This document shows positions 4,386-31,881 of a stretch of 64,000 nucleotides of DNA, piece after piece (position 1 is the stretch's first letter; each line of letters starts with the position of its first letter). The stretch is from the IMG/VR virus record IMGVR_UViG_3300042154_002208. The stretch is one strand, 5' to 3'. The translations under genes were made by a program, and so were the position numbers. Origin of the DNA: a virus (taxonomy: Duplodnaviria > Caudoviricetes). The notes under the pieces are model-generated. The model was not told the origin of the DNA. It was given only the letters and a program-made list of their open reading frames with translations, and did no database searches.

Positions 4386-4822
4386 ACGATCCTAATGTTA
4401 AAATTTTAAAATTAACAAGTGGTGAAGATATAATATGTAAAACATTCGATGAATGTAAAGACCTCAAAGGTCGTAATATATCAATTACAGATCCTGTAGT
4501 GTTAAATCAGATTAGAATGCCAAGAGGAGATATGATTGTAGAATCATATATTTTATCCCCTTGGGTAGCATTAGGAAACACAGAAAGTTTTGAGATATCA
4601 ACAGATCATATCATAGTTGCTGTTGATACAAAAGAAACATTAAAAGATAATTATATAAAATTCATAGATTCCAGGTCAGATCCTGAAATTTCTGAGGTTG
4701 AGGAAAAGGATTTGGAAAAAGAACAAATCCAAGAAATTGTAGATAAATTTATAAACACACTTGAAGAAGAGCATAATGAAAACAAAGAACCCCCTAAAAG
4801 ACGTGGAAGAACTCTCCACTGA
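4382..4822 (+). CDS. Conserved T4-like hypothetical protein (Sm-like N-terminus)
   Basis: VKILKLTSGEDII motif; typical position between uvsW and gp55. Confidence 0.65.
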   Translation: MNDPNVKILKLTSGEDIICKTFDECKDLKGRNISITDPVVLNQIRMPRGDMIVESYILSPWVALGNTESFEISTDHIIVAVDTKETLKDNYIKFIDSRSDPEISEVEEKDLEKEQIQEIVDKFINTLEEEHNENKEPPKRRGRTLH

Positions 4823-5396
4823 AATAGCTGAAGTAGTTAAGGAAGTAAAAATTCCTACTTCGTCTCACTATGTAGACAATAAAAAGTTTTTACAAGCTCT
4901 TATTGAATATAGACAAAGTGTAGTTGATGCGGCGGCCGAAGGAAAAGAACCACCTATTGTATCTAACTACATAGGTGAATGCTTTATTAAAATTGCAACA
5001 CATTTATCTTATAAATCTAATTTCATTAATTATACATTTAAAGATGATATGATTTCGGATGGAATTGAAAATTGTCTAACTGCTGTTGCCAAATTTGACC
5101 CATCCAAAGGATCAAATCCTTTCGCATATTATACTCAAATTATATACTTTGCTTTTATTAGACGTATCCAAAAAGAAAAGAAGCAACAAGCTACTAAGTA
5201 TAAATTGATTGAGAATATGGATATTGATTCATTAATTCTTCAAGAACATGACAACGGTGAATTTGGTAATCAGTTCTTAGATTACTTAAAACGGCAAATG
5301 GATACTATTGATATTGAAAAACGGGTAATTTCACCTCCTAAAAAGAACAAAATAATTACGGATGATTCGAGCAATCCACTTGACTTAGATGACTAA
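4761..5396 (+). CDS. gp55: Late transcription sigma factor gp55
   Basis: HYVDNKKFL, YIGECFIKIA, DMISDGIENC, NPFAYYTQIIYFAFIRRIQKEKKQ; exact start uncertain. Confidence 0.95.
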   Translation: MKKSIMKTKNPLKDVEELSTEIAEVVKEVKIPTSSHYVDNKKFLQALIEYRQSVVDAAAEGKEPPIVSNYIGECFIKIATHLSYKSNFINYTFKDDMISDGIENCLTAVAKFDPSKGSNPFAYYTQIIYFAFIRRIQKEKKQQATKYKLIENMDIDSLILQEHDNGEFGNQFLDYLKRQMDTIDIEKRVISPPKKNKIITDDSSNPLDLDD

Positions 5397-5408
5397 ACAC
5401 TATATAAT
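5380..5408 (+). promoter_or_regulatory. Sigma70-type early promoter for the deazaguanine cluster
   Basis: TTGACT(5380)-17 nt-TATAAT(5403), overlapping the 3' end of gp55. Confidence 0.8.
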
Positions 5409-5433
5409 ATGAGTATTGTTGAACGGAGTCATT

Positions 5434-6303
5434 ATGGCTAAACTTAAAATTTCAGAACTATTTTATTCAATTCAAGGCGAAGGCCGGTATATGGGTGTAC
5501 CATCTGTGTTCTTAAGAACATTTGGTTGCAATTTTACTTGTGACGGATTTGGTATGCCAAAGGGCGAAAAAAGCGATGAACGAAATGTTATCTCAATTAA
5601 AGCAGACAGTTTTAAAAATTACAATGACTTGCCTCTTGTACATACTGGCTGCGATTCCTATGCTAGTTGGGACCCTCGTTTTAAGCATCTTAGCCCTGTA
5701 CTCGATGTTAAAGATGTTGTGGAAGCAATCGTCGATACACTCCCACATAAAGAATGGAAAGACGAACACCTAGTTATTACTGGCGGTGAACCTTTATTGG
5801 GTTGGCAAAAACAATATCCGGAATTACTCGGTAATGAAAAAATGATAGCATTGAAAGAATTGACATTTGAGACAAATGGTACACAACCTTTGTCTAGCGA
5901 ATTTAAACAATATCTTTTAAATTGGACACTAAATAATAAAGGTCGCACTAGCAAAAGAGGTGTCGATGCTTTAACATTTTCAGTTTCACCTAAACTATCT
6001 GTATCGGGTGAAAAGTGGGAAGATGCAATTTGCCCAGAAATTGTAGCAGGTTATGAATGGTGCGGTTACACGTATCTTAAATTTGTGATTGGATCTAAAG
6101 AAGATGCAGAAGAAGCGGAACAGGCAGTAAATGCATATCGTAAAGCTGGTTTCTCAGGTCCTGTTTATCTTATGCCTCTCGGTGGAACTGAGCGGCTGTA
6201 CTCTCTTAATAATCGCAGCGTTGCAGAGTACGCAATGCAAAAAGGTTGGAGATATTCCGACCGACTACAAATCCCATTGTTTAAAAACGCATGGGGCACT
6301 TAA
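5434..6303 (+). CDS. queE: 7-carboxy-7-deazaguanine synthase (radical SAM)
   Basis: ELFYSIQGEG, FLRTFGCNFTC..GCDS, VITGGEP, ETNGT, SPKL, RLQIPLF. Confidence 0.92.
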   Translation: MAKLKISELFYSIQGEGRYMGVPSVFLRTFGCNFTCDGFGMPKGEKSDERNVISIKADSFKNYNDLPLVHTGCDSYASWDPRFKHLSPVLDVKDVVEAIVDTLPHKEWKDEHLVITGGEPLLGWQKQYPELLGNEKMIALKELTFETNGTQPLSSEFKQYLLNWTLNNKGRTSKRGVDALTFSVSPKLSVSGEKWEDAICPEIVAGYEWCGYTYLKFVIGSKEDAEEAEQAVNAYRKAGFSGPVYLMPLGGTERLYSLNNRSVAEYAMQKGWRYSDRLQIPLFKNAWGT

Positions 6304-6319: not shown

Positions 6320-6514
6320 ATGAGCGCACATAACGACATTGAAACAAGTTTAGCGGCATATAATGCTGAGAATGAGAAATTTAACAAAGGCAATGCAGCC
6401 GCAGGTACACGTACTCGCAAAGCATTAGCAGAGTTAGCCAAAGCAGTTAAAGCACGTCGCAATGAAATTACTGCCGAAAAAGCAGCTAGAGCAGAAGCAA
6501 AAACTAAGGCATAA
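6320..6514 (+). CDS. Small basic histone H1-like (Hc1-type) protein
   Basis: KGNAAAGTRTRKALAELAKAVKARR resembles the Hc1 domain; Ala/Lys-rich tail. Confidence 0.6.
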   Translation: MSAHNDIETSLAAYNAENEKFNKGNAAAGTRTRKALAELAKAVKARRNEITAEKAARAEAKTKA

Positions 6515-6631: not shown

Positions 6632-7315
6632 ATGAGTTTTAATAAAACTAAATGCGACCCAGAATTGGGTCTTAGAGTACACGAACACCTAGTTAAAATT
6701 GGTGTTGAAACTCCAACAACAAAATCATTAATTCCAGATCGTAAAGATAAGATAGCAGTTATCGAACCTTTATTTGCCAAGATCATGGAAACACTTGGAC
6801 TTGATCTTACTGATGATAGTCTAATTGAAACACCTAAGCGCGTTGCCAAGATGTATGTAAATGAAATCTTTTGGGGGCTTGATTATGAAGCATTTCCAAA
6901 ATGCACAACCGTTGATAACAAAATGAAATACAATGAAATGGTTGTTGAACGTAATGTTAATGTTCAATCCAATTGTGAACATCACTTTGTCGTTATTGAT
7001 GGTTTAGCAACTGTTGCTTATGTTCCAAAAGACAAAGTTCTTGGTTTATCTAAAATTAATCGTATTGTGGAATATTTTAGCAAGCGACCACAGATTCAAG
7101 AACGATTAACAGAACAAATTTTTCACACACTACAATATATTCTTGATACTGAAGATGTTGCAGTCTTGATTGATGCTCAACATTATTGTGTTAAATCTAG
7201 AGGTGTCGAAGATACCGGAAGCTCTACTGTAACAGTTCGACTAGGTGGCGGATTTAAAAATCATCCAGAAGTAAGAAACGAGTTTTATCAGATTGCTCGA
7301 CAAGGATGTAAATGA
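6632..7315 (+). CDS. folE: GTP cyclohydrolase I
   Basis: ETPKRVAKMY, SNCEHH, GLSKINRIV, RPQIQERLT, HYCVKSRG. Confidence 0.96.
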   Translation: MSFNKTKCDPELGLRVHEHLVKIGVETPTTKSLIPDRKDKIAVIEPLFAKIMETLGLDLTDDSLIETPKRVAKMYVNEIFWGLDYEAFPKCTTVDNKMKYNEMVVERNVNVQSNCEHHFVVIDGLATVAYVPKDKVLGLSKINRIVEYFSKRPQIQERLTEQIFHTLQYILDTEDVAVLIDAQHYCVKSRGVEDTGSSTVTVRLGGGFKNHPEVRNEFYQIARQGCK

Positions 7316-7821
7316 CAGTAAATGTAATGGTTGACTTGGAGACAATGTCAACAAGATCGCATGCAGCTATTTGTTCAATCGGTGCAGTAAAATTTGAAGG
7401 CAGTAAAATTTTAGATACATTTTACTGCACGGTTGATCTTGCTAGTTGTAAAGAGGCGGGGATGCATATATCTAAAGCAACCGTCGAGTGGTGGTCTAAA
7501 CAAAATAAAGAAGCATTGCGGGAATTAACAAAGAATAATATCTCATTGCAAGAAGCTCTTGATAAATTTGAGTTATGGTTCGGTCCTAAAAGTCTACCTA
7601 TTTGGGGTAACGGTGCTGTATTTGATAACACAATCTTAGGCAATGCTTATTTTATTACAGGCAGAGAACCTCCTTGGAAATGCTGGGATGACCGTTGTTA
7701 TAGAACAGCGAAGGCAATGTTCAATTGGATTCCCGAAGCTAAACGCGAAGGCACGTATCATAATGCCTTAGATGATGCGATGCATCAAACAAAACATATA
7801 ATTAAAATTCTTGGTGAGTAA
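7312..7821 (+). CDS. DEDDh 3'-5' exonuclease (Rv2179c-like)
   Basis: MVDLET, SIGAVKF, WGNGAVFD, HNALDDA. Confidence 0.8.
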   Translation: MTVNVMVDLETMSTRSHAAICSIGAVKFEGSKILDTFYCTVDLASCKEAGMHISKATVEWWSKQNKEALRELTKNNISLQEALDKFELWFGPKSLPIWGNGAVFDNTILGNAYFITGREPPWKCWDDRCYRTAKAMFNWIPEAKREGTYHNALDDAMHQTKHIIKILGE

Positions 7822-7822
7822 T

Positions 7823-9184
7823 ATGCGTCTTTATAAAAAGAGAGTTGCGTTTTGTATTAGCGATCAACACCTTGTACCTCATGGTGGCATTGGTCAATTT
7901 GCGAAAGGCTTTGTTGAAATGGCAAATACTATTGACTGGAAAGTTGATATTATTACTGACAAACCTACAACAAATGATTTTGCTAAATTAGTTGAATCAT
8001 TGGGTGCAAATTTAATTTCTCCTAAAAATGCTTTGTCGTATAAGAATCATACCGGTACCTTTGCATTTACAGATTCAATTAACTTTGAAAAGATGATTAA
8101 CTTTCGGGATGCTGTTATGAATGCGTTTCATACTAACGTCTATGATATGGTTATCTGTAATTCATTAGAGGCAATGCCCGCAGTATTGAGTTTTGATCTT
8201 AATAATTATATCCCTGTAGTATTCTACACGCATGAAGAGAGTATGGTGTTCCGTGATACCAGAAAATTTAAAGGTGTATTCTTAGAAAGTTGTAATGAAT
8301 TTTTTAACAACTTAATGACTCTTGAGAACTGTTATATCGGTACACAATCTGCTCGTAATGTTTCCGAAATTAAAAATAACGGCGGAGTAAGCGTAGAACA
8401 TTTAAATATGCCCATGTCTGAAAGAGAATTGCTCACAAGTGATTATTCTGAAAGAAAAGGCGTCTTATATATTGGTAGATGGGAAGACCGTAAAAATCCA
8501 GAAGCATTTCTAAAAGTAATTAAAGAAACTGGATTGCCTGCAAAGATTATGACCAATGCTAACGGCAAAAAGAAATTTGAAGCTCGTCTTGCAGAACTTG
8601 GTATAACCGACTATGAGATTAAGGCTGGTATTGTAGGTAAAGAAAAGGTAGACTTTATTAAATCTGCAAAAGTTCATTTTAATCCTTCACTAAGAGAAAA
8701 CTACCCATTCACATTTTTTGAATGTTTAGGTCATATGCCTTGTATTGTTATTGATAAATCTGAATGGGTAACTAATTTTGATAGTAAATATTATATTCGT
8801 TTGCCACTTAATGATGTAGCAAATACATTAAAGATTGAATATGCTGCTGATCGAAAAGAACGAAACCATGATGCGTTGCAGTATGTGAAGCATTTGGATT
8901 TTCAAACATCTGATAGATGGAAAAAGTTTCTTGCCGGCTACACTCAAACAGCTTTGGCCAGATCAGATTCGGCAAAAATTAATGATTACTCCGAAATCAA
9001 ATATTCGGACTTTATTAAAATCCTAAATAGAACACAATTAGCTATAGATGATGTCAAAAGTATATTGACAAATAAGTCTAAATATAATATAATCTATACA
9101 GACAACGACACATACCTATCTAAAGATCCTAATTTTATACCAAAAGAAGAAGTTGCTTCTTCATTAGAAAGCCTGTTTGCATGA
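7823..9184 (+). CDS. GT-B (family 4-like) glycosyltransferase with C-terminal extension
   Basis: GGIGQF N-terminal motif, LYIGRWEDRKNP, FNPSLRENYPFTFFECLG. Confidence 0.8.
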   Translation: MRLYKKRVAFCISDQHLVPHGGIGQFAKGFVEMANTIDWKVDIITDKPTTNDFAKLVESLGANLISPKNALSYKNHTGTFAFTDSINFEKMINFRDAVMNAFHTNVYDMVICNSLEAMPAVLSFDLNNYIPVVFYTHEESMVFRDTRKFKGVFLESCNEFFNNLMTLENCYIGTQSARNVSEIKNNGGVSVEHLNMPMSERELLTSDYSERKGVLYIGRWEDRKNPEAFLKVIKETGLPAKIMTNANGKKKFEARLAELGITDYEIKAGIVGKEKVDFIKSAKVHFNPSLRENYPFTFFECLGHMPCIVIDKSEWVTNFDSKYYIRLPLNDVANTLKIEYAADRKERNHDALQYVKHLDFQTSDRWKKFLAGYTQTALARSDSAKINDYSEIKYSDFIKILNRTQLAIDDVKSILTNKSKYNIIYTDNDTYLSKDPNFIPKEEVASSLESLFA

Positions 9185-10467
9185 GAACATATGAATACGT
9201 AATTTCTGGCCCAGCATATTTACGCTTGGGTGCAGAACAATGTAATGACCCAGATGTATTAGAAATGATGCTTGACATGATTGCTAAGGTTTGTCACAAT
9301 CAAAACAACCATACATTCTCATTATTGTATAATGGATTTACAGAAAAGAACTTTGGCCCTAAGTTACAAAAGTTTCGTGCTTCAATTAATAATATTCATG
9401 CTGACTCTGGAGGTTTGCAGATTATTACTCGCGGTTTAAAAAATACTCCAGAAGTAAGAGAAAAAGTTTATTTGAATCAAGGTGCATATGCAGACATTGG
9501 TATGTCGTTTGATGAGATTCCTGTCAAGACAACTTCTACAAGTGGCGTATCATCTAAGATTGATACTAAGCGTAGATATGCAGACATGGATAATTTTGAT
9601 GATTATGCAAGACAAACGGGCAAGAATGTAAAATCACAAATTGAAACATTTGATAAGATGGGCAGCAAATGTAGACCATTTGTTATTATGCAGGGCTCAT
9701 CGCAAGAATCATATTCACGCTGGGCAAAATTAGTACTCGAAGAAATTACTCCAGCATTACATCATCGTATCGGTGGTCTTGCTATGGGATCGGCTGCTCT
9801 GGGTATGGGACAATTAGAAGACGTTAAACGAGCATTCTATGTTACACAGATGCCGTATACTAGACCATTTCATTTACACGTATTGGGTGTAGGTGCATTA
9901 CGTCGTATTCTACCTTATATTTGTTTTAGTCAATCTGGTCTATATGAAGGTATTGATATTTCATATGACTCTACCACACATTCTATGTCATTGGATAATG
10001 GATTGTTTTATTTCTCATTTGCTAAAAAAGCAGCAGGTTCACCATATGGTGGCACATCTGTAAAAATGGGCAGAGAGTATTCTAACATTTATAGAACAGT
10101 TACTAAAGAAATTAATACAGTATGTGGAACAAATTATACTCCTGAAGAATACCATATCTTAATGAACAGAGGCGTAGGCGTTCATTTGGAAGCAGGCGGA
10201 AAATTTGTTGATATTATGCGAGCACGTCTTGCCTTTATTTTAACAAACGTACATAATTTTACTCACGATGTCAATGCTTTGACAGAATCAAAAGAATTGT
10301 TCTTAAAGTTCTGTAGAGAAAAGGGGTGTGAGAATGAATACGCTACATTGTTTGATGTTAAGAATCTTTCTGATTTTGAAGATTGGGAAAGAAATGTAGG
10401 CAAGTATATGGAGTCTGAACCAGTTAACACACAACCACCAGTTTCACTTGAGGATTTATTTGCATGA
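9181..10467 (+). CDS. dpdA: DpdA/TGT-like guanine transglycosylase (candidate DNA 7-deazaguanine insertase)
   Basis: HADSGGLQ, SFDEIP, HLHVLGVG, ISYDSTT catalytic-type motifs; context folE/queD/queE. Confidence 0.72.
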   Translation: MRTYEYVISGPAYLRLGAEQCNDPDVLEMMLDMIAKVCHNQNNHTFSLLYNGFTEKNFGPKLQKFRASINNIHADSGGLQIITRGLKNTPEVREKVYLNQGAYADIGMSFDEIPVKTTSTSGVSSKIDTKRRYADMDNFDDYARQTGKNVKSQIETFDKMGSKCRPFVIMQGSSQESYSRWAKLVLEEITPALHHRIGGLAMGSAALGMGQLEDVKRAFYVTQMPYTRPFHLHVLGVGALRRILPYICFSQSGLYEGIDISYDSTTHSMSLDNGLFYFSFAKKAAGSPYGGTSVKMGREYSNIYRTVTKEINTVCGTNYTPEEYHILMNRGVGVHLEAGGKFVDIMRARLAFILTNVHNFTHDVNALTESKELFLKFCREKGCENEYATLFDVKNLSDFEDWERNVGKYMESEPVNTQPPVSLEDLFA

Positions 10468-10916
10468 CCGATATTATTTCAAACGAGCCAGTATTTTTTA
10501 CAGATACAATTATACATAGTAAATTAATTAAAAAGAAAAGTTCTATTTGGGTTACCTTTCGCAAAGAGGGTATTCATAAATATCCCCAAGCAGCAACTGA
10601 TCCTAAATTAGCAACAGGCGATTGGCTGGATGTTTCATTCTTAGGAACACCACATAGACATATTTTTCATTTCCGTGTAGAGATGGAAGTATTTCATGAT
10701 GATCGAGATGTAGAATTTATTCAAGCAAAACGCATTATGGAACGATGGTACTCTGATGGCACACTACATTTAGATTATAAGTCATGTGAAATGATGGCAT
10801 GCGAGCTTTATGATAAATGTGCTGCACAATGGCCTGATAGAGATTATACTATTGAAGTATCAGAAGATGGTGAAAACGGTTGTAGAATTAGTTTTGAAAG
10901 GATAGCTGGTGAGTAA
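10464..10916 (+). CDS. QueD-like T-fold protein, candidate CDG decarboxylase (DpdL-like)
   Basis: LGTPHRHIF (LxxxHRHxF), EFI, SCE and VSEDGENG motifs; directly after the dpdA-like gene. Confidence 0.6.
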   Translation: MTDIISNEPVFFTDTIIHSKLIKKKSSIWVTFRKEGIHKYPQAATDPKLATGDWLDVSFLGTPHRHIFHFRVEMEVFHDDRDVEFIQAKRIMERWYSDGTLHLDYKSCEMMACELYDKCAAQWPDRDYTIEVSEDGENGCRISFERIAGE

Positions 10917-12078
10917 ATTATATTATATGGGTTTAGAGCCCTATGAAGGTCGCTATACTTTACAGTTGCAACAATGGAGTGAAGCTGCATTTAAACGCAG
11001 AGGTATTGACTATGAAGTAATTCATGGTGATATTCTAGATGACTCTAAAGCAATTGTTACAGGTCAAGTACTTGATGCACACGGGCGTAGTTATTATTCG
11101 CTGACACAAATGGCTAATCTTATTAAGAAGATGAAATCTGGCGAAATAACATATGACGACACAATCTTTTTTGAAGATATGTTTACTCCTGGCATTGAGG
11201 CTTTGCCGTATATTATGGATCAAGTTGAATGGAAATATCAACCTCGTATCTTTGTTCGTTGTCTTGCACAAACAATTGATCCGGATGATTTTGTTCACGT
11301 ATGGGATATGCAGAAGTGGATGGGTCTATATGAAAAGATGACAGATCAATTCGTTACAGGTGTACTTGCATCTAACGAAGAAATGGTTGCTCATATGAAA
11401 ATTGCAGGTTGGGAAGCACCAATCTTTAATATCTCTGGACTGGCATTTGACAAAGATGAAGTTCGTAGTCGTGTAGCAACTCGTATTCCATTTAATGATC
11501 GTAAACTTCGTGTAGTATTTGCTGCAAGATTCGATCAGGAAAAACAACCCGATTTCTTTATGGATCTTATTGAAAGATATCATACAATTAACCCGGGTGT
11601 AGAATTTGCTGTCTTATCAGGCGGACCTTTACGTAGTAATAACGAAAAGTATTTGACTCGCGCGCGAGCATTAGAAAAGACTCACAATTTTAAAATTTAT
11701 GAGAATCTTAAAAAGAATGAATACTATGAGTTGTTAGGCGATTCCCGAGTATTATTTAATTGCGCATTGCAGGATTGGGTAAGTAATACTGCATCAGAAG
11801 CAGATGCACTTGGCACAAATTGTTTGTATCCTGCATATAGATCGTTCCCCGAAACATTTGCCAATGATCGCGAATGTCTCTATATCCCATGGTCACAAGA
11901 TGACGCAGTATTTAAATTAAATACGTTATTGTATAACGAGAGAACTAATTTAGGTAAGTTGTCTGATTGGACATCTGGTACTATTGAACGTTGTTTAGAT
12001 ATTATGTTTGAAGATAATGCTAAATGGTATCGTAACGGTAAGGATTATAGAGACCATGTCCCAGCAGCCAAGTACTAA
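10909..12078 (+). CDS. GT-B glycosyltransferase
   Basis: VVFAARFDQEKQP, FNCALQDWVSNTASEADALG C-terminal nucleotide-sugar-binding pattern. Confidence 0.75.
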   Translation: MSKLYYMGLEPYEGRYTLQLQQWSEAAFKRRGIDYEVIHGDILDDSKAIVTGQVLDAHGRSYYSLTQMANLIKKMKSGEITYDDTIFFEDMFTPGIEALPYIMDQVEWKYQPRIFVRCLAQTIDPDDFVHVWDMQKWMGLYEKMTDQFVTGVLASNEEMVAHMKIAGWEAPIFNISGLAFDKDEVRSRVATRIPFNDRKLRVVFAARFDQEKQPDFFMDLIERYHTINPGVEFAVLSGGPLRSNNEKYLTRARALEKTHNFKIYENLKKNEYYELLGDSRVLFNCALQDWVSNTASEADALGTNCLYPAYRSFPETFANDRECLYIPWSQDDAVFKLNTLLYNERTNLGKLSDWTSGTIERCLDIMFEDNAKWYRNGKDYRDHVPAAKY

Positions 12079-13078
12079 ATTAGTCGTTGTCACGGGTTCT
12101 GCCGGTTATATCGGCGGACAGACTTGTATTGAATTAAAGAAACAAGGATACGAAGTTATCGGTATTGATAACAGACACAACGAACATCTTGATGCATTTC
12201 AAGATGAATATCTACAATGCGACTTTACAGATTTAGACGCATTTAGTTTATACAAAAAGGTTTATCCTGTAGCAATTATACATTGTGCTGGTACTAGCTT
12301 AGTTAGTCCTAGTATGAAAAATCCGGGACATTACTTTCATAACAATGTATCTAAAACAAATTTGCTTTTAGATTTTGTTGCCAAACATATTCCAAAGACT
12401 AAGATTATTTTTAGTAGTAGCGCATCTGTTTATGGAATTCCTACAACAAAAACACCATTGAGAGAAAACGATAAGGTCGATCCTATTTCTCCTTATGGCG
12501 AATCTAAGTTAATGGTTGAACATTTATTGGAATGGTATCATCGATGCCACAAATTAAATTTCACTGCATTTAGATATTTTAATGCGTGCGGTGCAGATGA
12601 TAACGGCCAACATGGGCAAGAACCAAATGCAACCCATATCTTTGCCAAACTATTTGAAGCAGTCAAACATAATGCATCATTCACTTTAAATGGTGCAGAC
12701 TATGACACGCCTGACGGAACTTGTATTAGGGATTATATTCATGTTCAAGATATTGCGCTTGCACATATAAAAGCTATTGACAATTCTATTCAAGGCATAT
12801 ATAATTTAGGGATGCTTCAGGGGCATTCTAATCTACAAATTCAAATGCTTGTAGAAAAAATTACCGGTAAAGAGATTGTAACATTTATTAATAGACGACG
12901 CGAAGGAGATCCTCCATCGTTAGTTGCTGATAGTACAATGTTTAAACGTCTTGCAGATTGGACACCTGTATATGATATGTCGGACATTTTAACATCTTTA
13001 AAAACATGGTACAATTCTCCAACATATGAGGCTTTAACAAACCAGCGGTCTTACTCGAACATTCACCCCGCTTTATAA
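12056..13078 (+). CDS. galE: UDP-glucose 4-epimerase
   Basis: VTGSAGYIG, FSSSASVYG, PYGESK (YxxxK), RYFNACGA, RDYIHV. Confidence 0.88.
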   Translation: MSQQPSTKLVVVTGSAGYIGGQTCIELKKQGYEVIGIDNRHNEHLDAFQDEYLQCDFTDLDAFSLYKKVYPVAIIHCAGTSLVSPSMKNPGHYFHNNVSKTNLLLDFVAKHIPKTKIIFSSSASVYGIPTTKTPLRENDKVDPISPYGESKLMVEHLLEWYHRCHKLNFTAFRYFNACGADDNGQHGQEPNATHIFAKLFEAVKHNASFTLNGADYDTPDGTCIRDYIHVQDIALAHIKAIDNSIQGIYNLGMLQGHSNLQIQMLVEKITGKEIVTFINRRREGDPPSLVADSTMFKRLADWTPVYDMSDILTSLKTWYNSPTYEALTNQRSYSNIHPAL

Positions 13079-13116: not shown

Positions 13117-13599
13117 ATGGCAAATAAAAAATTCTTCTCAACAAAAACATATAGACAAATAGGTCCCGTAGCGTATAGACAATGGCGCGCAGATAGTCAT
13201 TGTAACTTAATTCATGGGTATGCCATGAGTTTTCATTTCGAATTCGAAGCGGATACTCTTGATGCTAGGAATTGGGTTACTGATTTTGGTGGATTGCGAC
13301 CACTTAAAGATAAGCTAGAAGAATGGTTTGACCACACTCTGCTAGTTGCACAAGATGATCCAATGCGAGAACATTTACTAGAATTGGGTAGATTAAAACT
13401 AGCTAAGATTACAGAAGTAGAGCGTACAGGATGTGAAGGTTTATCCGACTTCTTATATGAATATATTAACACAATCTTTTTACCTAACTGCGGCAGCGAA
13501 GAAGCTAAAAGAGTTTGGTGTTGCAGAGTAGAAGTTAGAGAGACTGATAGTAATATGGCAGGTCGCAGTGGTCATAGAGAAGATAATGAATTCGCTTGA
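13117..13599 (+). CDS. queD: 6-carboxy-5,6,7,8-tetrahydropterin synthase
   Basis: HCNLIHGY, WVTDFG, FDHT, GCEG, VRET motifs. Confidence 0.85.
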   Translation: MANKKFFSTKTYRQIGPVAYRQWRADSHCNLIHGYAMSFHFEFEADTLDARNWVTDFGGLRPLKDKLEEWFDHTLLVAQDDPMREHLLELGRLKLAKITEVERTGCEGLSDFLYEYINTIFLPNCGSEEAKRVWCCRVEVRETDSNMAGRSGHREDNEFA

Positions 13600-13778: not shown

Positions 13779-14834
13779 ATGAAAATTTGTTTATTGGGTG
13801 ATACGCATTTTGGGGTTAGGAATGATTCTAAAGCATTCCATATTTACTATGAAAAATTTTATAGTGAAGTTTTCTTTCCTTATTTAGAACAAGAAAATGT
13901 AACAACTGTTCTGCAGTTAGGTGATTTATTTGATCGTCGTAAGTATATTAACTTTATGTCCCTCGCAGAATCTCGTCGTTATTTTTTCGATGTGTTATCT
14001 AAAAAGAATATTAGATTAATTGCTCTTATAGGTAATCATGATATCTTTTGGAAAGAAAGTCTAAAAGTAAATTCTCCGGAATTACTTTTGGAAGACTACA
14101 ATAATATTGAAATTGTAAACAGCCCAACAACTATGCAATTTGATAATAAAAGCATAGACATTATTCCTTGGATTTGTAAAGAAAATGAAAATGATATTGC
14201 AGACTTTATAACTAAATCTGCATCAGATTTTTGTGCTGGACATTTTGAGCTATCAGGGTTTCAAATGATGAAAGGCATTGATAGTCACGATGGTATGGAT
14301 AGATCAATGCTGAAAACCTATAATACCGTTTTCAGTGGACATTATCATACTAGATCGCACGAAGATAATATTGTTTATCTGGGTACTCCATACGAACTGG
14401 CTTGGAACGATGAAGGCGATCCTAAGGGATTTTACATTTTTGATACTGATACTGGGTTGTTTGATTTTATTCAGAATCCGCTTAATATGTTTATTAAACA
14501 TTACTATGACGATGAAAAGACAGATCCCAATTTAATTGACAAGTCAATATTTACCAACAAGTACGTTAAACTTGTAGTAGTTAACAAAAAAGATATTTTA
14601 AAATTTGATAAATTTGTAGAAGCTATCTATACAAACAATCCTATAGAGTTAAAAATTATAGAAGACTTTTCAGAGTTTGAAGCTAGTGCATTGGATGATT
14701 CAATTGATCTAGAAGATACTATGACATTGTTATCTGATTATGTAGATAGCGTTGAAACAGATTCTGACAAAGAGCGGTTAAAGACTTTGCTAAAGACTTT
14801 ATATGTAGAAGCACAACATTATAATGAAGCATGA
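13779..14834 (+). CDS. gp47: Recombination endonuclease subunit gp47 (Mre11-like)
   Basis: GDTHFG, GDLFD, GNHD, GHFE, SGHYH phosphoesterase motifs. Confidence 0.95.
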   Translation: MKICLLGDTHFGVRNDSKAFHIYYEKFYSEVFFPYLEQENVTTVLQLGDLFDRRKYINFMSLAESRRYFFDVLSKKNIRLIALIGNHDIFWKESLKVNSPELLLEDYNNIEIVNSPTTMQFDNKSIDIIPWICKENENDIADFITKSASDFCAGHFELSGFQMMKGIDSHDGMDRSMLKTYNTVFSGHYHTRSHEDNIVYLGTPYELAWNDEGDPKGFYIFDTDTGLFDFIQNPLNMFIKHYYDDEKTDPNLIDKSIFTNKYVKLVVVNKKDILKFDKFVEAIYTNNPIELKIIEDFSEFEASALDDSIDLEDTMTLLSDYVDSVETDSDKERLKTLLKTLYVEAQHYNEA

Positions 14835-16543
14835 TAAAATTTAAGAAAATAATTTGGAAAAATTTCTTATCAACCGGCGGGCAATTTACTGAAGTAGAGT
14901 TTACTAAATCTTCATCTACTTTAATTGTTGGAGAAAACGGTGCAGGCAAAAGCACTATTTTAGATGCAATTTGTTTTGTTCTGTTTAATAAACCTTTTAG
15001 GAATATTAACAAACCGCAGTTGATGAATACTATCAACGGCAAGTTACTTGTTGTTGAGGTTGAATTTTCTATTGGTAACAAAGATTATAGAATTGTGCGA
15101 GGAATGAAACCTGGCATATTTGAGATCTATTGCAATGACGTATTATTGAATCAAGATGCTGCCTCAAGAGATTATCAAAAGTATCTTGAAGAAAGTATTT
15201 TAAAATTAAATTATAAATCATTCACTCAGATTGTTATATTAGGATCTGCATCATTTACTCCCTTCATGCAATTGTCTTTGGGAAATAGACGTGAAATTAT
15301 TGAGGATATTTTAGATATTCAAATTTTCACAGTTATGAATGCAGTATTAAAAGATAAAACAACTGACATAAAAGCTCGTATAACAGAGATTGAAAATGAT
15401 ATTACCTTAGGTAAAAATAAGGTTAAGTTGCATCAACAATATATTGCAACCCTTGAAAGCGACAAACAAAAGAAAGTTGAAGATGTACAAAAGCGCATAC
15501 TTGAATCGAATGCTGAGATATCACAACTTAATGCAGGAATGTTGGTCGAGCAAGAAAAAGAAACGAGTTGTAAATCCTCTATATCTGACGCCGATGAGAA
15601 GCGTAACAAGCGTACGGAGATGGGAGCGTTGCTTAGAAAGCTTTCCGAAAGAATTACTAATCAAGAAACAAGCATACAATTTTACCACGACCATGATGTT
15701 TGTCCAACGTGTAGCCAGGATCTTGACGAACATCTCAAAGGATCCGCAATCGAACTTCATACACATAAACGTGAAGAAGTGCAATCTGCGATTGAAGCCC
15801 TTAGCTTGCAACTTGAAGGTGTTGAAACTAGACTTAATGAGATTGATGCGATCGAAAAGAAAATCTCTGAATATACAAGCAACATCATTAGATATCAGTC
15901 AAAGATCATCGCATCTCAAACGTACATTCAAAAGCTACAGGCGGACCTGGCAGTCAACAATAATGATACGGCAAACATTGAAGATGAAACGAGAAAACTT
16001 AAAAACTTGGCCAAGGAAGTGGTCGCACTTGCAGGTGAAAAAAGTAAATTATCAGAAGATAAGCATTATTTAGATATTGCAAGTGTATTGCTAAAAGATA
16101 CTGGCATTAAAACAAAGATCATTCGTCAATACTTACCTGCAATAAATAAATTAGTAAATAAGTATTTGGCGGCAATGGATTTCTTTGTTCACTTTGAATT
16201 AGATGAATCTTTTAATGAAGTAATTAAATCTAGACACAGAGACGAGTTTAGTTATGCTTCATTTAGTGAAGGCGAAAAACAAAGAATAGATTTGGCGTTA
16301 TTGTTTACTTGGCGAACAATTGCTAAGATGAAAAATAGTGCAAGTACAAATTTACTATTATTAGATGAAGTATTTGATTCTTCATTAGACACAAATGGCA
16401 CAGACTATGTAATGAATTTATTAAATACAATTGGTGAAGATACAAACGTATTTGTAATTTCGCACAAAGGCGATCAACTCTTAGATAAGTTTAAGTCTGT
16501 AATTAAGTTTCAAAAGTATCAAAATTTTAGTAGAATATCATGA
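14831..16543 (+). CDS. gp46: Recombination endonuclease subunit gp46 (Rad50-like)
   Basis: GENGAGKST, CPTC zinc hook, FSEGEK signature, LLLDEVFD. Confidence 0.96.
   Translation: MIKFKKIIWKNFLSTGGQFTEVEFTKSSSTLIVGENGAGKSTILDAICFVLFNKPFRNINKPQLMNTINGKLLVVEVEFSIGNKDYRIVRGMKPGIFEIYCNDVLLNQDAASRDYQKYLEESILKLNYKSFTQIVILGSASFTPFMQLSLGNRREIIEDILDIQIFTVMNAVLKDKTTDIKARITEIENDITLGKNKVKLHQQYIATLESDKQKKVEDVQKRILESNAEISQLNAGMLVEQEKETSCKSSISDADEKRNKRTEMGALLRKLSERITNQETSIQFYHDHDVCPTCSQDLDEHLKGSAIELHTHKREEVQSAIEALSLQLEGVETRLNEIDAIEKKISEYTSNIIRYQSKIIASQTYIQKLQADLAVNNNDTANIEDETRKLKNLAKEVVALAGEKSKLSEDKHYLDIASVLLKDTGIKTKIIRQYLPAINKLVNKYLAAMDFFVHFELDESFNEVIKSRHRDEFSYASFSEGEKQRIDLALLFTWRTIAKMKNSASTNLLLLDEVFDSSLDTNGTDYVMNLLNTIGEDTNVFVISHKGDQLLDKFKSVIKFQKYQNFSRIS
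15444..16073 (+). CDS. Candidate overprinted basic ORF (+1 frame within gp46)
   Basis: 209 open codons on the same strand; gp46 codons here avoid NTA+purine pairs. Confidence 0.3.
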   Translation: MQPLKATNKRKLKMYKSAYLNRMLRYHNLMQECWSSKKKKRVVNPLYLTPMRSVTSVRRWERCLESFPKELLIKKQAYNFTTTMMFVQRVARILTNISKDPQSNFIHINVKKCNLRLKPLACNLKVLKLDLMRLMRSKRKSLNIQATSLDISQRSSHLKRTFKSYRRTWQSTIMIRQTLKMKRENLKTWPRKWSHLQVKKVNYQKISII

Positions 16544-21107: not shown

Positions 21108-21115
21108 TATAAATA
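21108..21115 (+). promoter_or_regulatory. T4-type late promoter for the sugar island
   Basis: TATAAATA just after the terminator, ~35 nt upstream of gmd. Confidence 0.7.
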
Positions 21116-21149
21116 AATGTATATTATAAATTCATTATAGGAATTGAAA

Positions 21150-22157
21150 ATGAAAACAGCATTAATTACTGGTATTACAGGCCAAGACGGATCGTACCTT
21201 GCAGAACTATTACTCGAAAAGGGTTATATGGTTCACGGCATTATTAGACGTAGTTCGTCAATCAACACAGGTCGCATCGACCACATCTACGATAACCCAA
21301 ATTTAAAACTACATTATGGCGACGTAACTGACTCTTTGTCACTTATGAACATACTTAAAAAGTATGAGCCAGATGAAATCTATAATTTGGCTGCACAAAG
21401 TCATGTTAAAGTTTCATTTGAGACTCCTGAATATACTGCACAAGTTGATGCATTAGGTACTTTAAAAATTCTTGAATCAGTTAGATTACTAAATTTAGAA
21501 CATAAGACTAAAATTTATCAGGCATCTACATCTGAGTTATATGGATTGGTGCAAGAAATCCCACAAAAAGAAACAACCCCATTTTATCCTCGCTCACCAT
21601 ATGGTGTAGCTAAACTATATGGATTTTGGATTGTTAAAAATTATCGTGAATCTTATAATATGTTTGCCTGTTCTGGTATTTTATTTAATCATGAATCTCC
21701 TCGTCGAGGACATAATTTTGTAACCAAGAAAATTGTAGATGGACTTGAAGCAATTAGTTCAGGTCGGCAGGAATGTTTATCTATGGGCAATTTAAATGCA
21801 AAACGTGATTGGGGGCACGCTAAAGATTATGTTAAAGCAATGTGGTTAATGTTGCAACAAGACACACCTGATGATTTTGTTATTGCCACCGGTGAACAAT
21901 ATTCGGTAAAAGATTTTGTTAATAAGTGCGCGCCATACTATCACTTATCTATTCGTTGGGAAGGCGCAGGCCTAAACGAAGTAGGTATTAATAATTACAA
22001 TAATAAAGTAATTATTCGAGTAGATGAAAAATACTTCCGCCCTGCAGAAGTAGAAACTTTATTGGGCGATCCATCAAAGGCAAAGAGTGTGTTAGGTTGG
22101 CAGCCTGAGCATACATTCGATAGTTTAGTTGAAGATATGTGTACTAATTTTGAGTGA
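21150..22157 (+). CDS. gmd: GDP-mannose 4,6-dehydratase
   Basis: [52 protein letters not shown]. Confidence 0.96.
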
Positions 22158-22164
22158 GGATAAT

Positions 22165-23100
22165 ATGGAAAAAAATAGTAAAATTTTTATTGCAGGTCAT
22201 AATGGTTTAGTAGGATCTGCTATTGTGCGTAAACTTCAGAATGAGGGTTACGATAATCTAATTCTTCGTTCTAAAAGTGAATTGGATTTACGAGATCAAC
22301 GAGCAGTTCGTAATTTCTTTAGTACAGAAAAACCTGAATATGTTTTCTTAGCAGCAGCTAAAGTTGGAGGTATCAATTATAACGCAACTAATCCTGCTGA
22401 GTTTATTTATGATAACCTTGCTATTCAGACTAACGTAATTGATGCAGCATATAGAAACAATTGTAGTAAATTGTTGTTCTTGGGTTCGGCCTGCATTTAT
22501 CCTAAGGTCACACCTCAACCTATTAAAGAAGAATACTTGTTAACAGCGCCACTAGAACCTTCTAATGAAGGTTACGCATTAGCTAAAATTACAGGTATGC
22601 GTATGTGCGAATATTACAGACGTCAATATGGTTTCAACGCTATTAGTTTGATGCCTGCAAATTTGTATGGGCCACATGACAATTTTATTCCTGAGCAAGG
22701 CCACGTTATCCCGGGTATCATTACTAAGTTCTTTAACGCAATGAAGAACAATGAAGATAGTATTATGTGCTGGGGAGATGGATCACCTACACGAGAATTT
22801 TTATATGTAGATGATTTAGCAGATGCTTGTTTGTTTCTGATGAATAATTACGACAAAGCTGAATTTATTAATGTAGGTAGCGATGTTGAAATTCCAATTA
22901 AAGAACTTTCAGAATTAATTAAAGATGCTGTTGGTTTCAAGGGTGAAATTAAGTGGGATACAACTCTACCGAATGGTACACCTAGACGCAAAATGGAAAA
23001 CTCAAGATTGTTTGACATGGGATGGAAACCAAAGGTATCGTTTGAGGAAGGACTCAAGCGTACGATTGATTGGTATAAAACAGAAAAAGGTATACTATGA
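22165..23100 (+). CDS. fcl: GDP-L-fucose synthase / ColC-like epimerase-reductase
   Basis: GHNGLVGSA, AAKVGGI, FLGSACIYP, YALAK, WGDGSPTREF. Confidence 0.9.
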   Translation: MEKNSKIFIAGHNGLVGSAIVRKLQNEGYDNLILRSKSELDLRDQRAVRNFFSTEKPEYVFLAAAKVGGINYNATNPAEFIYDNLAIQTNVIDAAYRNNCSKLLFLGSACIYPKVTPQPIKEEYLLTAPLEPSNEGYALAKITGMRMCEYYRRQYGFNAISLMPANLYGPHDNFIPEQGHVIPGIITKFFNAMKNNEDSIMCWGDGSPTREFLYVDDLADACLFLMNNYDKAEFINVGSDVEIPIKELSELIKDAVGFKGEIKWDTTLPNGTPRRKMENSRLFDMGWKPKVSFEEGLKRTIDWYKTEKGIL

Positions 23101-24266
23101 AGTGGCCGTTGATGGGTGAGACAATCACCTTTATGGACAGATTGAAGATGGCGCATTTTGCGCTGACAGCTAAGAAATTCACATTCGGTGAAAAGGTAAA
23201 ACAATTCGAAAACGAATGGAGCGAGTGGCTTGGCGCGAAACATTCTTTATATGTTTCTAGCGGAAGTACTGCAAACTTCTTATTGGTAGCGGCAGTTAAA
23301 GAGTTATACAAATTAAAAGCGGGTGACAAAGTATTAGTTCCTGCTTGCACATGGATGACGAATGTTTCACCTATTATGCAGCTTGGTCTTGAACCAGTAT
23401 TTTGCGATGTTAATCTAGATAATTTTAGTTTTGATCTCGAAGAAGCTAGATTGATTTCATTGAAGCATGATATTAAAATGGTATTCATTACTCATTTGTT
23501 AGGGTTCTCCGCAAACAATGAAGGTATTAAACGTATCTTCCCAAGAGCAATTATAATAGATGATATCTGCGAATCACATGGTTGCAAAACACCATACGGC
23601 GAAAAATGTGGTTCAAATAGTTTAGGTGCAACATTCAGTTTCTATTTTGGACATCATATGTCTACAGTAGAAGGTGGAATGATTTCCACAAACAATACTA
23701 AACTTTATGATTTGATGAAAATTAAACGAAGCCATGGTATGGCAAGAGAATCAATTAACTTCGATGAGTATGCTAAAAAATATCCTGATGTAGATAAACA
23801 ATTCTTGTTTGTTACCGACGGATACAATTTTAGAAATCATGAGATTTGTGCTGTACTTGGTATCTCGCAATTAAAACGTTTGGATAAAATGGTTGAGATT
23901 AGAAATAGAAATCACAAACTATTTACAGAAATTATTGACAAATATCCTAATCTGTTTTATACTATTAAAAATCCCAAAACAATTAGCAGCTTCTGTTTTC
24001 CTTTCATCTGCAGATCAAACGAGATCATGTTAGCAATGAAGGATACATTCACTAAACATACTATTGAATACAGACCAGTTGTTGCGGGCAATTTATTGTC
24101 ACAGCCTTTTCTTAAAGATTATAAAATAGAAACTACTAAGAAAAGAACCAATGCTGACATTATTCAGACACAAGGGGTTTATATCGGTAACAATCATTTT
24201 GTTACAGAATCAGACATGAAATTTTTAGATAAAGTAGTAGGAGAAATTAATGACCAATTTAGGTGA
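23097..24266 (+). CDS. PLP/PMP-dependent DegT-family enzyme, ColD-like GDP-4-keto-6-deoxymannose 3-dehydratase
   Basis: SSGSTAN, DDICESHG, FSFYFGHHMSTVEGG with His in place of the Schiff-base Lys; adjacent to gmd-fcl. Confidence 0.72.
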   Translation: MKWPLMGETITFMDRLKMAHFALTAKKFTFGEKVKQFENEWSEWLGAKHSLYVSSGSTANFLLVAAVKELYKLKAGDKVLVPACTWMTNVSPIMQLGLEPVFCDVNLDNFSFDLEEARLISLKHDIKMVFITHLLGFSANNEGIKRIFPRAIIIDDICESHGCKTPYGEKCGSNSLGATFSFYFGHHMSTVEGGMISTNNTKLYDLMKIKRSHGMARESINFDEYAKKYPDVDKQFLFVTDGYNFRNHEICAVLGISQLKRLDKMVEIRNRNHKLFTEIIDKYPNLFYTIKNPKTISSFCFPFICRSNEIMLAMKDTFTKHTIEYRPVVAGNLLSQPFLKDYKIETTKKRTNADIIQTQGVYIGNNHFVTESDMKFLDKVVGEINDQFR

Positions 24267-24609
24267 AAACATTGAGGAAGTTATTAAAAGAACAGTTAAC
24301 AATGTTTTAGATAATGCTAAAGATTTTGGTATGCCAGATTCCAATTATATCGCAACTGACAATCTAGGTGAGATTGTTGAGAAACTTGCTATCATTCATA
24401 TTAGAATGTGGATGCTTGAAGATGCATTTCAAACTGCAAAATCAGATGAAGAGATGGCTGATCTAAAACGCAAAGTTGATATTTGCTTCAAGGTTAAGCG
24501 TCCTAAATATGTTCAAGCTATTAACCTGCTAGTTGATGATGCTATTAAAAATGAAAAATCTTTGAGAGAAGATTCTGTTAAATTGTATAAAGGTATTGAT
24601 AATGTCTAA
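24250..24609 (+). CDS. Hypothetical protein (DUF4254-like helical)
   Basis: LGEIVEKLAIIHIRMWMLED pattern. Confidence 0.5.
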   Translation: MTNLGENIEEVIKRTVNNVLDNAKDFGMPDSNYIATDNLGEIVEKLAIIHIRMWMLEDAFQTAKSDEEMADLKRKVDICFKVKRPKYVQAINLLVDDAIKNEKSLREDSVKLYKGIDNV

Positions 24610-25516
24610 AATTGTTTTCTTTAATCATTATCACAAAGGTGATCTACATACGCATAAAGAATTTATTCGTCACATTCAATCACAACTACCAGAATTTACA
24701 TTCGAATATCTGCATAAAAATGCAGAAAAGTTAACCGCAGAATTGGGTATTTCTTTAATAGGGTCGCCCGATGATTTAGACAACAAGACTCCATTCTATC
24801 AGGATGAAGATACTTTGTTTGTTAATACGTGGGTTGGATGTAACTGGGATGTGTTCTGTAAGTATGGTGGTATTAATATGAATACTATCTACGAAGAATG
24901 GGGAGACATTGTAGATACAATTAATGAGACATTCGGTACTTCTGTTAAATTACATAAAGATAAAGAATATTATTTGCCTCGTATCAGCTACAACGCTTTA
25001 AGTATTGCAGGCGTAGATCAATATGTTAATTCTACAATTGGTGTTCGAAAAGTATTAGTCTGCAATAATGTACCTCAATCTAATCAGTCATTTTCTTCTG
25101 ATATGAAGGAACACATTTTGCCCTTTGCAGAAATGTATCCCGATACACATTTTATCTGCACTAATAAATTTGATACTGAAGGTGCTACAAATATTTTATT
25201 CACCGGCGATATTATAGGTCCTGTTACCGATGGAGATCTACAGGAGATTTCTTATCTAAGTACATACTGCAATGTTATTGTTGGTAAGAACTCTGGCCCG
25301 TATGTATTCTGCGAGACTTATGATAATTATATGGATGACACAAAAACATTTGTATCATTTAATACTAAGCATCCAGATTATGAAGATGTACATGAGACAA
25401 TGTCAAAAGATTTAAATATCAAATGTACGTATCATGCAATCCCAATCTTCAGCAATTCATTGACTGATAAAGATCACGAAAACATTATGTCTGCATTGAA
25501 TCGGGCATTTGCATGA
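24602..25516 (+). CDS. Glycosyltransferase-like protein
   Basis: HKGDLH N-terminus and IVGKNSGP motif resembling GT9-like enzymes; island context. Confidence 0.5.
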   Translation: MSKIVFFNHYHKGDLHTHKEFIRHIQSQLPEFTFEYLHKNAEKLTAELGISLIGSPDDLDNKTPFYQDEDTLFVNTWVGCNWDVFCKYGGINMNTIYEEWGDIVDTINETFGTSVKLHKDKEYYLPRISYNALSIAGVDQYVNSTIGVRKVLVCNNVPQSNQSFSSDMKEHILPFAEMYPDTHFICTNKFDTEGATNILFTGDIIGPVTDGDLQEISYLSTYCNVIVGKNSGPYVFCETYDNYMDDTKTFVSFNTKHPDYEDVHETMSKDLNIKCTYHAIPIFSNSLTDKDHENIMSALNRAFA

Positions 25517-26388: not shown

Positions 26389-27095
26389 AAATACAAACAT
26401 TTATCTTTAACTGGCGCGGACAGTATGAAAAAACAAAAGAAAAGCAAAAGCAACTGAGTGCCATTGGGGTCGTGCCTGTCGTTATTAATAGTGACGACAA
26501 TCACCGTGAGGACGATCCTAATTGGCACAACATTGGCGAGGACAGTTATTTTACCGCACAATTTTTAAAAGCAATTGAGTTATTTGATGCGGATGCAATG
26601 TTTCACATTCAAGCAGATGCATCTTATGATAATTGGACTGAAATTTATGCTGGCGCTGAAGAATGTTTCGACACTTACAACTGGGGCATCTATGCTCCGA
26701 ATGTAGATTATACATTCTATGATTCTAGTAGAGCTGATCTTAAATCGTTTGATCTAGAAGAGCCTTATTATAAAATGGTTGCAAATCCTGATTGTACTTG
26801 TTGGTTTATTCATAAAGATATTATTGAGGATGCTAAGAATCGTAATATCGATTTTGCCCCCTATAAAATGGGATGGAGCTTTGATATAGTATATACTGCA
26901 ATTGGTTATATTAGTAAGAGGCCCGTTATCAGAGATTATCGTTACACAATCTCACATCCGCCAGGAACAAACTATAGTAAACAACAAGCTGAGACTGAGA
27001 TGCATACGTTTTACTCAAACCTGCCTTCAGATATTCAGACTGCATTTAAATATATTAAACAAGACAAAGAACATTTAGGAAAATATTATGCTTAA
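26385..27095 (+). CDS. Hypothetical GT-A-like protein
   Basis: FHIQADA, IYAPNVD; island context. Confidence 0.5.
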   Translation: MKIQTFIFNWRGQYEKTKEKQKQLSAIGVVPVVINSDDNHREDDPNWHNIGEDSYFTAQFLKAIELFDADAMFHIQADASYDNWTEIYAGAEECFDTYNWGIYAPNVDYTFYDSSRADLKSFDLEEPYYKMVANPDCTCWFIHKDIIEDAKNRNIDFAPYKMGWSFDIVYTAIGYISKRPVIRDYRYTISHPPGTNYSKQQAETEMHTFYSNLPSDIQTAFKYIKQDKEHLGKYYA

Positions 27096-29342: not shown

Positions 29343-29343
29343 T

Positions 29344-31869: not shown

Positions 31870-31881
31870 ATTGAGTATTTT

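Follow-up and report, generated by a model that had tools for sequence, protein, structure and literature searches.

A deazaguanine island with built-in glycosyltransferase genes in an uncultured T4-like lake phage: a candidate sugar-bearing DNA base

Why would a phage thread two glycosyltransferase genes and a UDP-glucose 4-epimerase gene through the genes of a 7-deazaguanine pathway? The question is raised by the IMG/VR virus record IMGVR_UViG_3300042154_002208 (Duplodnaviria; Caudoviricetes), a stretch of 64,000 nucleotides analysed here at its full length and referred to as the window, in which two predicted glycosyltransferase genes (GT1 and GT2), galE and genes for a DpdA-family transglycosylase and a DpdL protein together occupy positions 7,823 to 13,078. 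The stretch is present in at least 17 lake-water metagenomes and comes from an uncultured, T4-like phage; no near-identical DNA was found among cultured phages. We consider it somewhat likelier than an even chance that the island is an early-expressed DpdL-type DNA-modification module whose DNA base would bear a sugar. To our knowledge all characterised DNA glycosylations are on hydroxymethyl pyrimidines, and all eight 7-deazaguanines known in DNA are sugar-free. An earlier reading of the DNA, made from the letters alone (the sequence-only reading), likewise knew of no characterised glycosylated 7-deazaguanine in DNA, and our full-text literature search found no report of one. The deazaguanine pathway is already known; dedicated sugar genes (GT2, GT1 and GalE) are woven into it here.

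Gene order and the company kept by GT1 and GT2

Ten genes on the + strand lie between a gp55-like sigma factor and gp47/gp46, in the order QueE, an Hc1-like open reading frame (ORF), FolE, a DexA-like exonuclease, GT1, the DpdA-family protein, DpdL, GT2, GalE and QueD. With their boundaries they are:

4761-5396, + strand: gp55-like late sigma factor, left boundary (NCBIfam sigma-70 superfamily, E 2e-6; position kept in related contigs)
5416-6303, + strand: QueE, 7-carboxy-7-deazaguanine synthase, radical SAM (phrog_2076 QueE-like, E 1e-51; N-terminal matches to QueE NCBIfam models)
6320-6514, + strand: Hc1-like (histone H1-like) small basic protein, 64 aa (Pfam PF07432, E 1.2e-11, 44.7 bits against a cut-off of 23.5)
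6632-7315, + strand: FolE, GTP cyclohydrolase I (Pfam PF01227, E 1e-60)
7312-7821, + strand: DexA/Rv2179c-like 3'-5' exonuclease (Pfam PF16473, E 7e-46)
7823-9184, + strand: GT1, predicted GT-B/GT4-like glycosyltransferase (model, Foldseek, motif, locus context)
9181-10467, + strand: DpdA-family transglycosylase of the tRNA-guanine transglycosylase (TGT) superfamily, ACP17/BUDD type (phrog_10773, E 3e-99; TIGR00449, E 7e-7)
10464-10916, + strand: DpdL, QueD-like T-fold protein, proposed decarboxylase of 7-carboxy-7-deazaguanine (CDG) (LGTPHRHIF motif; phrog_17812)
10909-12078, + strand: GT2, predicted GT-B/GT4-like glycosyltransferase, DpdL-associated family (model, Foldseek, hhalign, locus context)
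12056-13078, + strand: GalE, UDP-glucose 4-epimerase (TIGR01179 equivalog, 275.8 bits against a cut-off of 262.3)
13117-13599, + strand: QueD, 6-carboxytetrahydropterin synthase (phrog_2389, E 4e-41; Pfam PTPS, E 4e-15)
13779-16543, + strand: gp47 and gp46, SbcCD-like recombination nuclease, right boundary (gp47 phrog_100, E 3e-111; conserved synteny)

The ATG of GT1 stands 1 nt past the stop of the DexA-like gene, and GT1 ends in a TGA that forms the letters ATGA (9181-9184) with the start codon of the DpdA-family gene; the DpdA-family and DpdL genes share a second ATGA at 10464-10467, GT2 opens with GTG in an 8-nt overlap with DpdL, and the ATG of GalE at 12056 makes an overlap of 23 nt with GT2, with queD next. 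The sequence-only reading had set two glycosyltransferases on either side of a dpdA-like/dpdL-like pair, joined to it by overlapping stop and start codons and followed by the overlapping GalE and by queD, and the coordinates bear this out. The pairs GT1/DpdA, DpdA/DpdL, DpdL/GT2 and GT2/GalE are predicted to be translationally coupled. It had also pointed out that the island fills the gp55-gp47 interval which in T4 holds the DNA alpha-glucosyltransferase, and the T4 genome (NC_000866) does place a-gt between genes 55 and 47.

Relatives were surveyed by tblastn, giving 137 loci (L001-L137), nearly all on viral contigs. The order helicase-gp55-QueE-FolE-DexA-GT1-DpdA-DpdL-GT2-GalE-QueD-gp47-gp46 is kept in dozens of IMG/VR contigs, even where GT1 is only 48% identical; because the same gene order recurs in so many contigs, the arrangement appears far from chance, and the conservation of neighbourhood that had been suggested as a check is found. 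Viral-contig loci numbered 294 for GT2 and 58 for GT1. DpdL is present in all 69 GT2 viral loci having at least 2.5 kb of upstream sequence (median gap 9 nt), and at least one deazaguanine-pathway gene in 48 of 50 GT1 loci, counts which overstate independence since many of the loci are close relatives or one contig fetched twice. The co-occurrence of transferase homologues with deazaguanine genes, on which the earlier proposal leaned, is thus observed for both genes. More widely, the GT2 family has 643 members at E<=1e-30 among 1.84 billion representatives (50% identity). Four metagenome contigs carrying members were read: in two the gene lies beside PTPS and GTP cyclohydrolase I genes, the third is 1.7 kb long, and the fourth, of 4.4 kb, has neighbours without a Pfam match. 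A 655-aa member was considered as an informative fusion and rejected, its extra part being low-complexity and without matches.

The association is not symmetrical. The GT2 profile gave no match in the whole genomes of the DpdL phages phiST, RHph_I1_18, Bakedbeans and D479; GT2 is therefore always with DpdL, DpdL is not always with GT2, and this is the pattern of a tailoring enzyme. Since phiST makes plain deoxy-7-deazaguanine (dDG) without GT2, the transferase is unnecessary for making or inserting the base. By analogy with the glucosyltransferases of some phages with hydroxymethylcytosine (hmC), GT2 would be an add-on that acts on the product of the pathway.

More independent cases are provided by other lineages, and members of the same family stand beside DpdL in cultured phages. 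Compared with DpdL-adjacent transferases by hhalign, the GT2 profile gives E 3e-33 for ACP17, 2e-41 for PA5oct and 3e-45 for Phosso, BUCT-ZZ01, a phage of Synechococcus elongatus PCC 7942, has a GT2 homologue of 64% identity, and the DpdL-adjacent transferase of BUDD (BUDD/X1) is also a GT2 homologue. The phages with this pairing infect Pseudomonas, Acidovorax, Sinorhizobium, Xanthomonas and Synechococcus. ACP17 has DpdA, a glycosyltransferase, DpdL and QueE; Phosso has DpdL and a glycosyltransferase; BUDD has a glycosyltransferase, DpdA, DpdL and QueE; and PA5oct has a TGT-like protein of the type found at locus L059, a glycosyltransferase, DpdL, an epimerase fragment, a phosphoribosyltransferase and QueE. 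The L059-type lineage, in which the genes are adjacent to PolB, combines a 532-aa TGT-like protein (ILGDSGGFQI) with DpdL, GT2 (66% identity), an epimerase, a nucleotidyltransferase and FolE. Together, gene order and co-occurrence make a strong case that GT1 and GT2 would be functionally linked to the 7-deazaguanine module.

Two further genes of the island deserve mention. The DexA-like exonuclease gene stays beside the module in relatives and in BUCT-ZZ01. The 64-aa ORF, whose match is to the chlamydial histone H1-like protein Hc1, keeps its place between queE and folE in part of the related contigs, and would put a small basic protein of DNA-binding type within a DNA-modification operon.

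The deazaguanine enzymes and the expected base

Which base could receive a sugar depends on what the pathway enzymes are. The motif LGTPHRHIF of the small T-fold protein fits the DpdL signature LxxxHRHxF, which defines DpdL by replacing the CxxxHGH of QueD in a protein proposed to be a CDG decarboxylase (PMC10516641). This protein is 55.6% identical to its ACP17 homologue (tblastn, E 7e-33), ACP17 dpdL being among the genes tested by Cui, Hutinet et al. (NAR 2023; PMC10516641), and 34.5% identical to DpdL of phiST (tblastn, E 1e-6). QueD has CNLIHGY where the CxxxHGH motif is expected, with the context of the catalytic cysteine kept.

The product of 9181-10467, of 428 aa, is a DpdA-family protein, predicted to exchange guanine in DNA for 7-deazaguanine. 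It matches TIGR00449 at E 7e-7, which is under the cut-off of that model, is 35% identical to the ACP17 DpdA of PMC10516641 (E 6e-65), and aligns by hhalign with the 'queuine tRNA-ribosyltransferase' of Xanthomonas phage BUDD (probability 100%, E 1.5e-53). D75-S-G-G-L-Q and Y-D263-S-T are invariant among 18 homologues and were placed on the TGT catalytic positions (D-S-G-G and the nucleophile Asp) by motif resemblance. A search of PDB chains with the DpdA profile gave no match. Against the DpdA3 of phiST, taken as gp042 (259 aa; equated with CGPG_00065 by gene order only), hhalign returned a probability of 0.2%; as there is no detectable similarity to the phiST protein, we name the product DpdA-family, of ACP17/BUDD type. 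The 'dpdA-like' label of the earlier reading therefore survives at family level, with no support for membership of the phiST DpdA3 group.

QueC (PF06508) was not found in three complete relatives (202-222 kb) or in BUCT-ZZ01, and from its absence in the complete relatives the expected base is CDG-derived, as in phiST, a phage without QueC in whose DNA dG is fully replaced by plain dDG (PMC10516641). DpdL and DpdA of ACP17 gave no dDG in E. coli, and further enzymes are perhaps required (PMC10516641); at the locus studied here, FolE, QueD, QueE and the DpdA-family gene are all present in the context of DpdL.

The sequence-only reading had also allowed that the sugar might go to another base. 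The transferases would then glycosylate hmC or hydroxymethyluracil (hmU), and the deazaguanine would be an independent second modification, an idea encouraged by the position of the island in the a-gt interval and by the GT-B enzymes which glucosylate hmC in T4. However, no gene of PF00303 (thymidylate-synthase/dCMP-hydroxymethylase) was found in the three complete relatives or in BUCT-ZZ01, so that there would be no hmC or hmU to glycosylate, and we reject these targets. Homology to T4 a-gt was likewise rejected (hhalign probability 4.3% for GT1 and 0.2% for GT2), so the analogy with T4 drawn earlier stands for position and fails for sequence. Moreover, a different target base would leave the linkage between GT2 and DpdL unexplained, and we regard it as very unlikely.

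Several observations in other lineages touch on the deazaguanine enzymes. The TGT-like proteins at L059:4837-6435 and L139:6209-7831 (PA5oct EST35_0316), of 532-540 aa, share 39% identity and match nothing in Pfam or PHROG; with the TGT motif DSGGFQ and a place two or three genes upstream of DpdL, they look like a further unnamed DpdA-like subfamily. Purine-type phosphoribosyltransferase genes adjoin queE in PA5oct (L139:10160-10594) and BUCT-ZZ01 (L001:3093-3554), a possible sign that part of the deazaguanine goes into the nucleotide pool instead of, or besides, being inserted by DpdA; the window has no counterpart of the phosphoribosyltransferase or of the nucleotidyltransferases of other lineages. 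In gp176 of Vibrio phage Bakedbeans (L155:7209-8360) the DpdL match covers the C-terminal third only of a 383-aa protein, which is either a DpdL fused to another N-terminal domain or a product with a mis-called start.

Transferases, sugar donor and acceptor

By sequence the two transferases are barely recognisable: with Pfam Glycos_transf_1, GT2 scores 26.5 bits against a cut-off of 26.4 and GT1 falls below it at 18.3 bits, a sequence search of PDB chains with either gave nothing useful, and the GT2 profile found only a marginal match to WlaC among those chains. The AlphaFold models have pLDDT values of 85.6 (GT2) and 88.7 (GT1), and in Foldseek comparisons with the PDB both match two-Rossmann-domain GT-B structures at probability 1.0 (GT2, E 7e-12; GT1, E 7e-14), so the predicted folds are clearly GT-B/GT4-like. 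GT1 has an E-x7-E motif in which E292 and E300 are invariant; GT2 has the variant D289-x7-E297, with E297 invariant. GT1 also has an extra C-terminal domain of ~110 residues (about residues 345-453), for which an Atlas feature search gave sub-threshold, unnamed matches only. The two had been called unrelated, which is nearly right: their profiles match weakly and over the C-terminal domain only (hhalign probability 85%, E 7e-6), suggesting that they are only distantly related to each other.

The donor is suggested by the epimerase. In 97 of the 99 loci whose GT2 has 60% identity or more, GalE comes next after GT2, and it is missing from all four in which a glycosyltransferase less than 30% identical fills the GT2 slot; this co-variation suggests that GT2 uses the GalE product, and GalE probably supplies its donor. 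Other lineages add epimerases of their own, cytidylyltransferase-like and nucleotidyltransferase genes and a 6-phosphogluconolactonase-like gene. The sugars on hmC are diversified in T-even phages, and the swapping of transferase and epimerase genes here resembles this.

Two variants of the transferase genes were also seen. At L025-L029 the place of GT1 is taken by an unrelated protein of 300 aa without a Pfam match (L026:5415-6317), and the same sub-lineage keeps GT2 (91% identity) together with a different type of GalE (51% identity). In jumbo-phage contigs (L143:904-3756 and L117:7989-10195), GT1 homologues of 54-55% identity lie in a run that opens with queE and continues with a short-chain epimerase and a UvdE UV-endonuclease gene; in L143 a methyltransferase-like gene follows the transferase.

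Timing bears on what the transferases could act upon. Three candidate promoters were noted, where perfect sigma-70 sites are expected at ~0.004 per 10 kb (a rough estimate):

5380-5408, + strand: candidate sigma-70-like promoter directly before queE (11/12 consensus match)
9065-9093, + strand: candidate sigma-70 promoter-like site in the 3' end of GT1, before the DpdA-family gene (12/12 match, 17-nt spacer)
12777-12805, + strand: candidate sigma-70 promoter-like site inside galE, before queD (12/12 match, TTGACA-17 nt-TATAAT)

No T4-type late promoter (TATAAATA) is found between 4300 and 14200. As judged from consensus matches, the strong sigma-70-like sites and the lack of a late promoter in the island are consistent with GT1 and GT2 acting early, at the time of replication. 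A separate 16-kb glycan-biosynthesis island at 21108-36989 opens with TATAAATA at 21108, the only such motif nearby, and is probably a different, late glycosylation programme.

The existence of that second island in the same window lends something to the view that the transferases and GalE decorate virion proteins or host envelope glycans and owe their place among the deazaguanine genes to shared early expression alone. Their folds are generic GT4 folds, GT1 homologues bear JGI names reading 'involved in cell wall biosynthesis', and one GT1 homologue is found away from deazaguanine genes. Shared expression does not readily account for the start/stop overlaps with DpdA and DpdL, or for the presence of DpdL at 69 of 69 GT2 loci across several host lineages; unlike the glycan island, moreover, this one has no late promoter. 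We judge a role outside nucleic acids to be quite unlikely.

Other results weigh against a sugar on DNA, in addition to the kinship among the counted loci. Within 10 kb of the stray GT1 homologue, which is 58% identical, there is no deazaguanine gene. Neither transferase is homologous to a-gt of T4, a known DNA glycosyltransferase (hhalign), and in a search of viral folds proteins annotated as DNA alpha-glycosyltransferases rank no higher than generic glycosyltransferases, the top named viral structural match of GT2 being the ACP17 transferase. GT2 is acidic (isoelectric point, pI, 5.2), with a net charge of -10 on its N-terminal acceptor domain, though the argument carries little weight given that even the DpdA-like protein is not basic (pI 6.5). 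Many of the nearest solved folds of GT2 take small-molecule acceptors (BshA, the Synechococcus pteridine glucosyltransferase BGluT, SenB, LmbT and MshA), which suits a free base or some other small molecule better than it suits DNA. Lastly, C7 of plain 7-deazaguanine bears neither a hydroxyl nor an amine, and an unusual linkage would be needed.

From the acidity of GT2 and its fold neighbours it follows that the sugar may be put on the free base before insertion by DpdA, or on a metabolite that stays out of DNA. In the latter case the transferases would glycosylate a small pathway molecule (giving a free deazapurine or pterin glycoside, or a transient sugar-activated intermediate), and the DNA would carry plain dDG or its carboxylated form, dCDG. 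Among the fold neighbours is a cyanobacterial tetrahydrobiopterin glucosyltransferase, and N2-glycosylated 7-deazaguanine natural products exist (huimycin, dapiramicin). The failure of ACP17 DpdL and DpdA to reconstitute dDG in E. coli, where other enzymes were suggested (PMC10516641), could be taken in the same sense. On the other hand, phiST makes dDG with no homologue of GT2, and GT2 always keeps company with a DNA transglycosylase and replication genes although the phages infect widely different hosts, which a pterin glycoside of cyanobacteria does not explain; nor would a free metabolite bring a phage much gain compared with protected DNA. We therefore hold a small-molecule product to be unlikely.

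The reading we prefer, that the sugar ends up on a DNA base, would run as follows. FolE, QueD and QueE would make CDG from GTP, DpdL would take off the carboxyl group, as in the published proposal (PMC10516641), and the DpdA-family transglycosylase would swap the resulting 7-deazaguanine for guanine in phage DNA. GT2, the constant companion of DpdL, would be the core transferase, fed by GalE with what is probably UDP-galactose, and GT1 would be a second, lineage-specific accessory transferase. The end product would be a DNA 7-deazaguanine to which GT2 has added one sugar and GT1 perhaps another, and this sugar-bearing base would shield the DNA from host nucleases. The analysis itself establishes which genes these are, how the transferases are predicted to fold, how tightly the genes are coupled and that they recur together. 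The presence of the sugar on the DNA base is inferred, and so are the stage at which it is added (to the inserted or to the free base), its atom of attachment and its identity; attachment could be as a C-glycoside at C7/C8, or at N2 or O6.

If this is extended to the phages that share GT2, there is about an even chance that a glycosylated 7-deazaguanine replaces guanine in the virion DNA of the window lineage and of BUCT-ZZ01, PA5oct, ACP17, BUDD/X1 and Phosso, as a mono- or disaccharide, probably with galactose, in the two-transferase phages. PA5oct DNA resists cutting at G-containing restriction sites, a modification inferred from restriction resistance only (PMC12191111), and this is an indirect hint of a modified G in a phage with GT2.

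Should the proposal hold, this would be the first sugar-bearing purine analogue in any genome and a new natural DNA base, joining the DNA glycosylation and deazaguanine branches of phage DNA chemistry through a link that could be unprecedented (a C-glycoside at C7/C8, or an N2-glycoside). It might explain both the failed reconstitution with ACP17 DpdL and DpdA and the G modification of PA5oct, a therapy-relevant jumbo phage. With 643 representatives, GT2 belongs to a large family often met in lake viromes, so the modification would be widespread in nature, and the enzymes, a glycosyltransferase active on a deazapurine and possibly making an unusual glycosidic bond, would be new tools for nucleic-acid labelling.

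Comparison with known systems

How does the island compare with systems already described? The alpha- and beta-glucosyltransferases of T4 resemble GT1 and GT2 in their GT-B fold, in the gene 55-gene 47 slot (a-gt), in the proposed UDP-sugar logic and in the swapping of transferases between lineages. They differ in the acceptor: the one proposed here is a purine analogue, which has no hydroxymethyl group to offer.

A functional precedent for a sugar on a deazaguanine is QTMAN/GTDC1, a GT4 enzyme which glycosylates a 7-deazaguanine derivative, queuosine, in tRNA. That enzyme puts its sugar on the cyclopentenediol of queuosine, a group missing here. QTMAN_N (PF12038) was not detected at E<=10 in GT2 and five homologues, nor at E<=1 in five related phage genomes, and QTMAN is not within the 30 best Swiss-Prot fold matches; a relationship of the GT2 family to QTMAN is thus unsupported.

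Another close system is the dDG system of phiST, which likewise has FolE, QueD and QueE without QueC, together with DpdL and a TGT-superfamily transglycosylase (PMC10516641), its deazaguanine genes also lying among replication genes with an exonuclease gene nearby. It differs in having no homologue of GT1 or GT2 and no GalE, in adding MazG and a kinase-like ATPase, in its short DpdA3 (259 aa, gp042 by gene order) where the window encodes a 428-aa protein, and in its product, plain dDG.

The cultured phages ACP17, PA5oct, Phosso, BUDD/X1 and BUCT-ZZ01 have, as here, a GT2-family glycosyltransferase beside DpdL and a TGT-like gene. PA5oct and the L059 lineage depart from this island in their other TGT-like subfamily (532-540 aa, DSGGFQ) and their added phosphoribosyltransferase or nucleotidyltransferases. 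Most of these cultured phages have a single transferase, and among them BUCT-ZZ01 alone has the layout with two.

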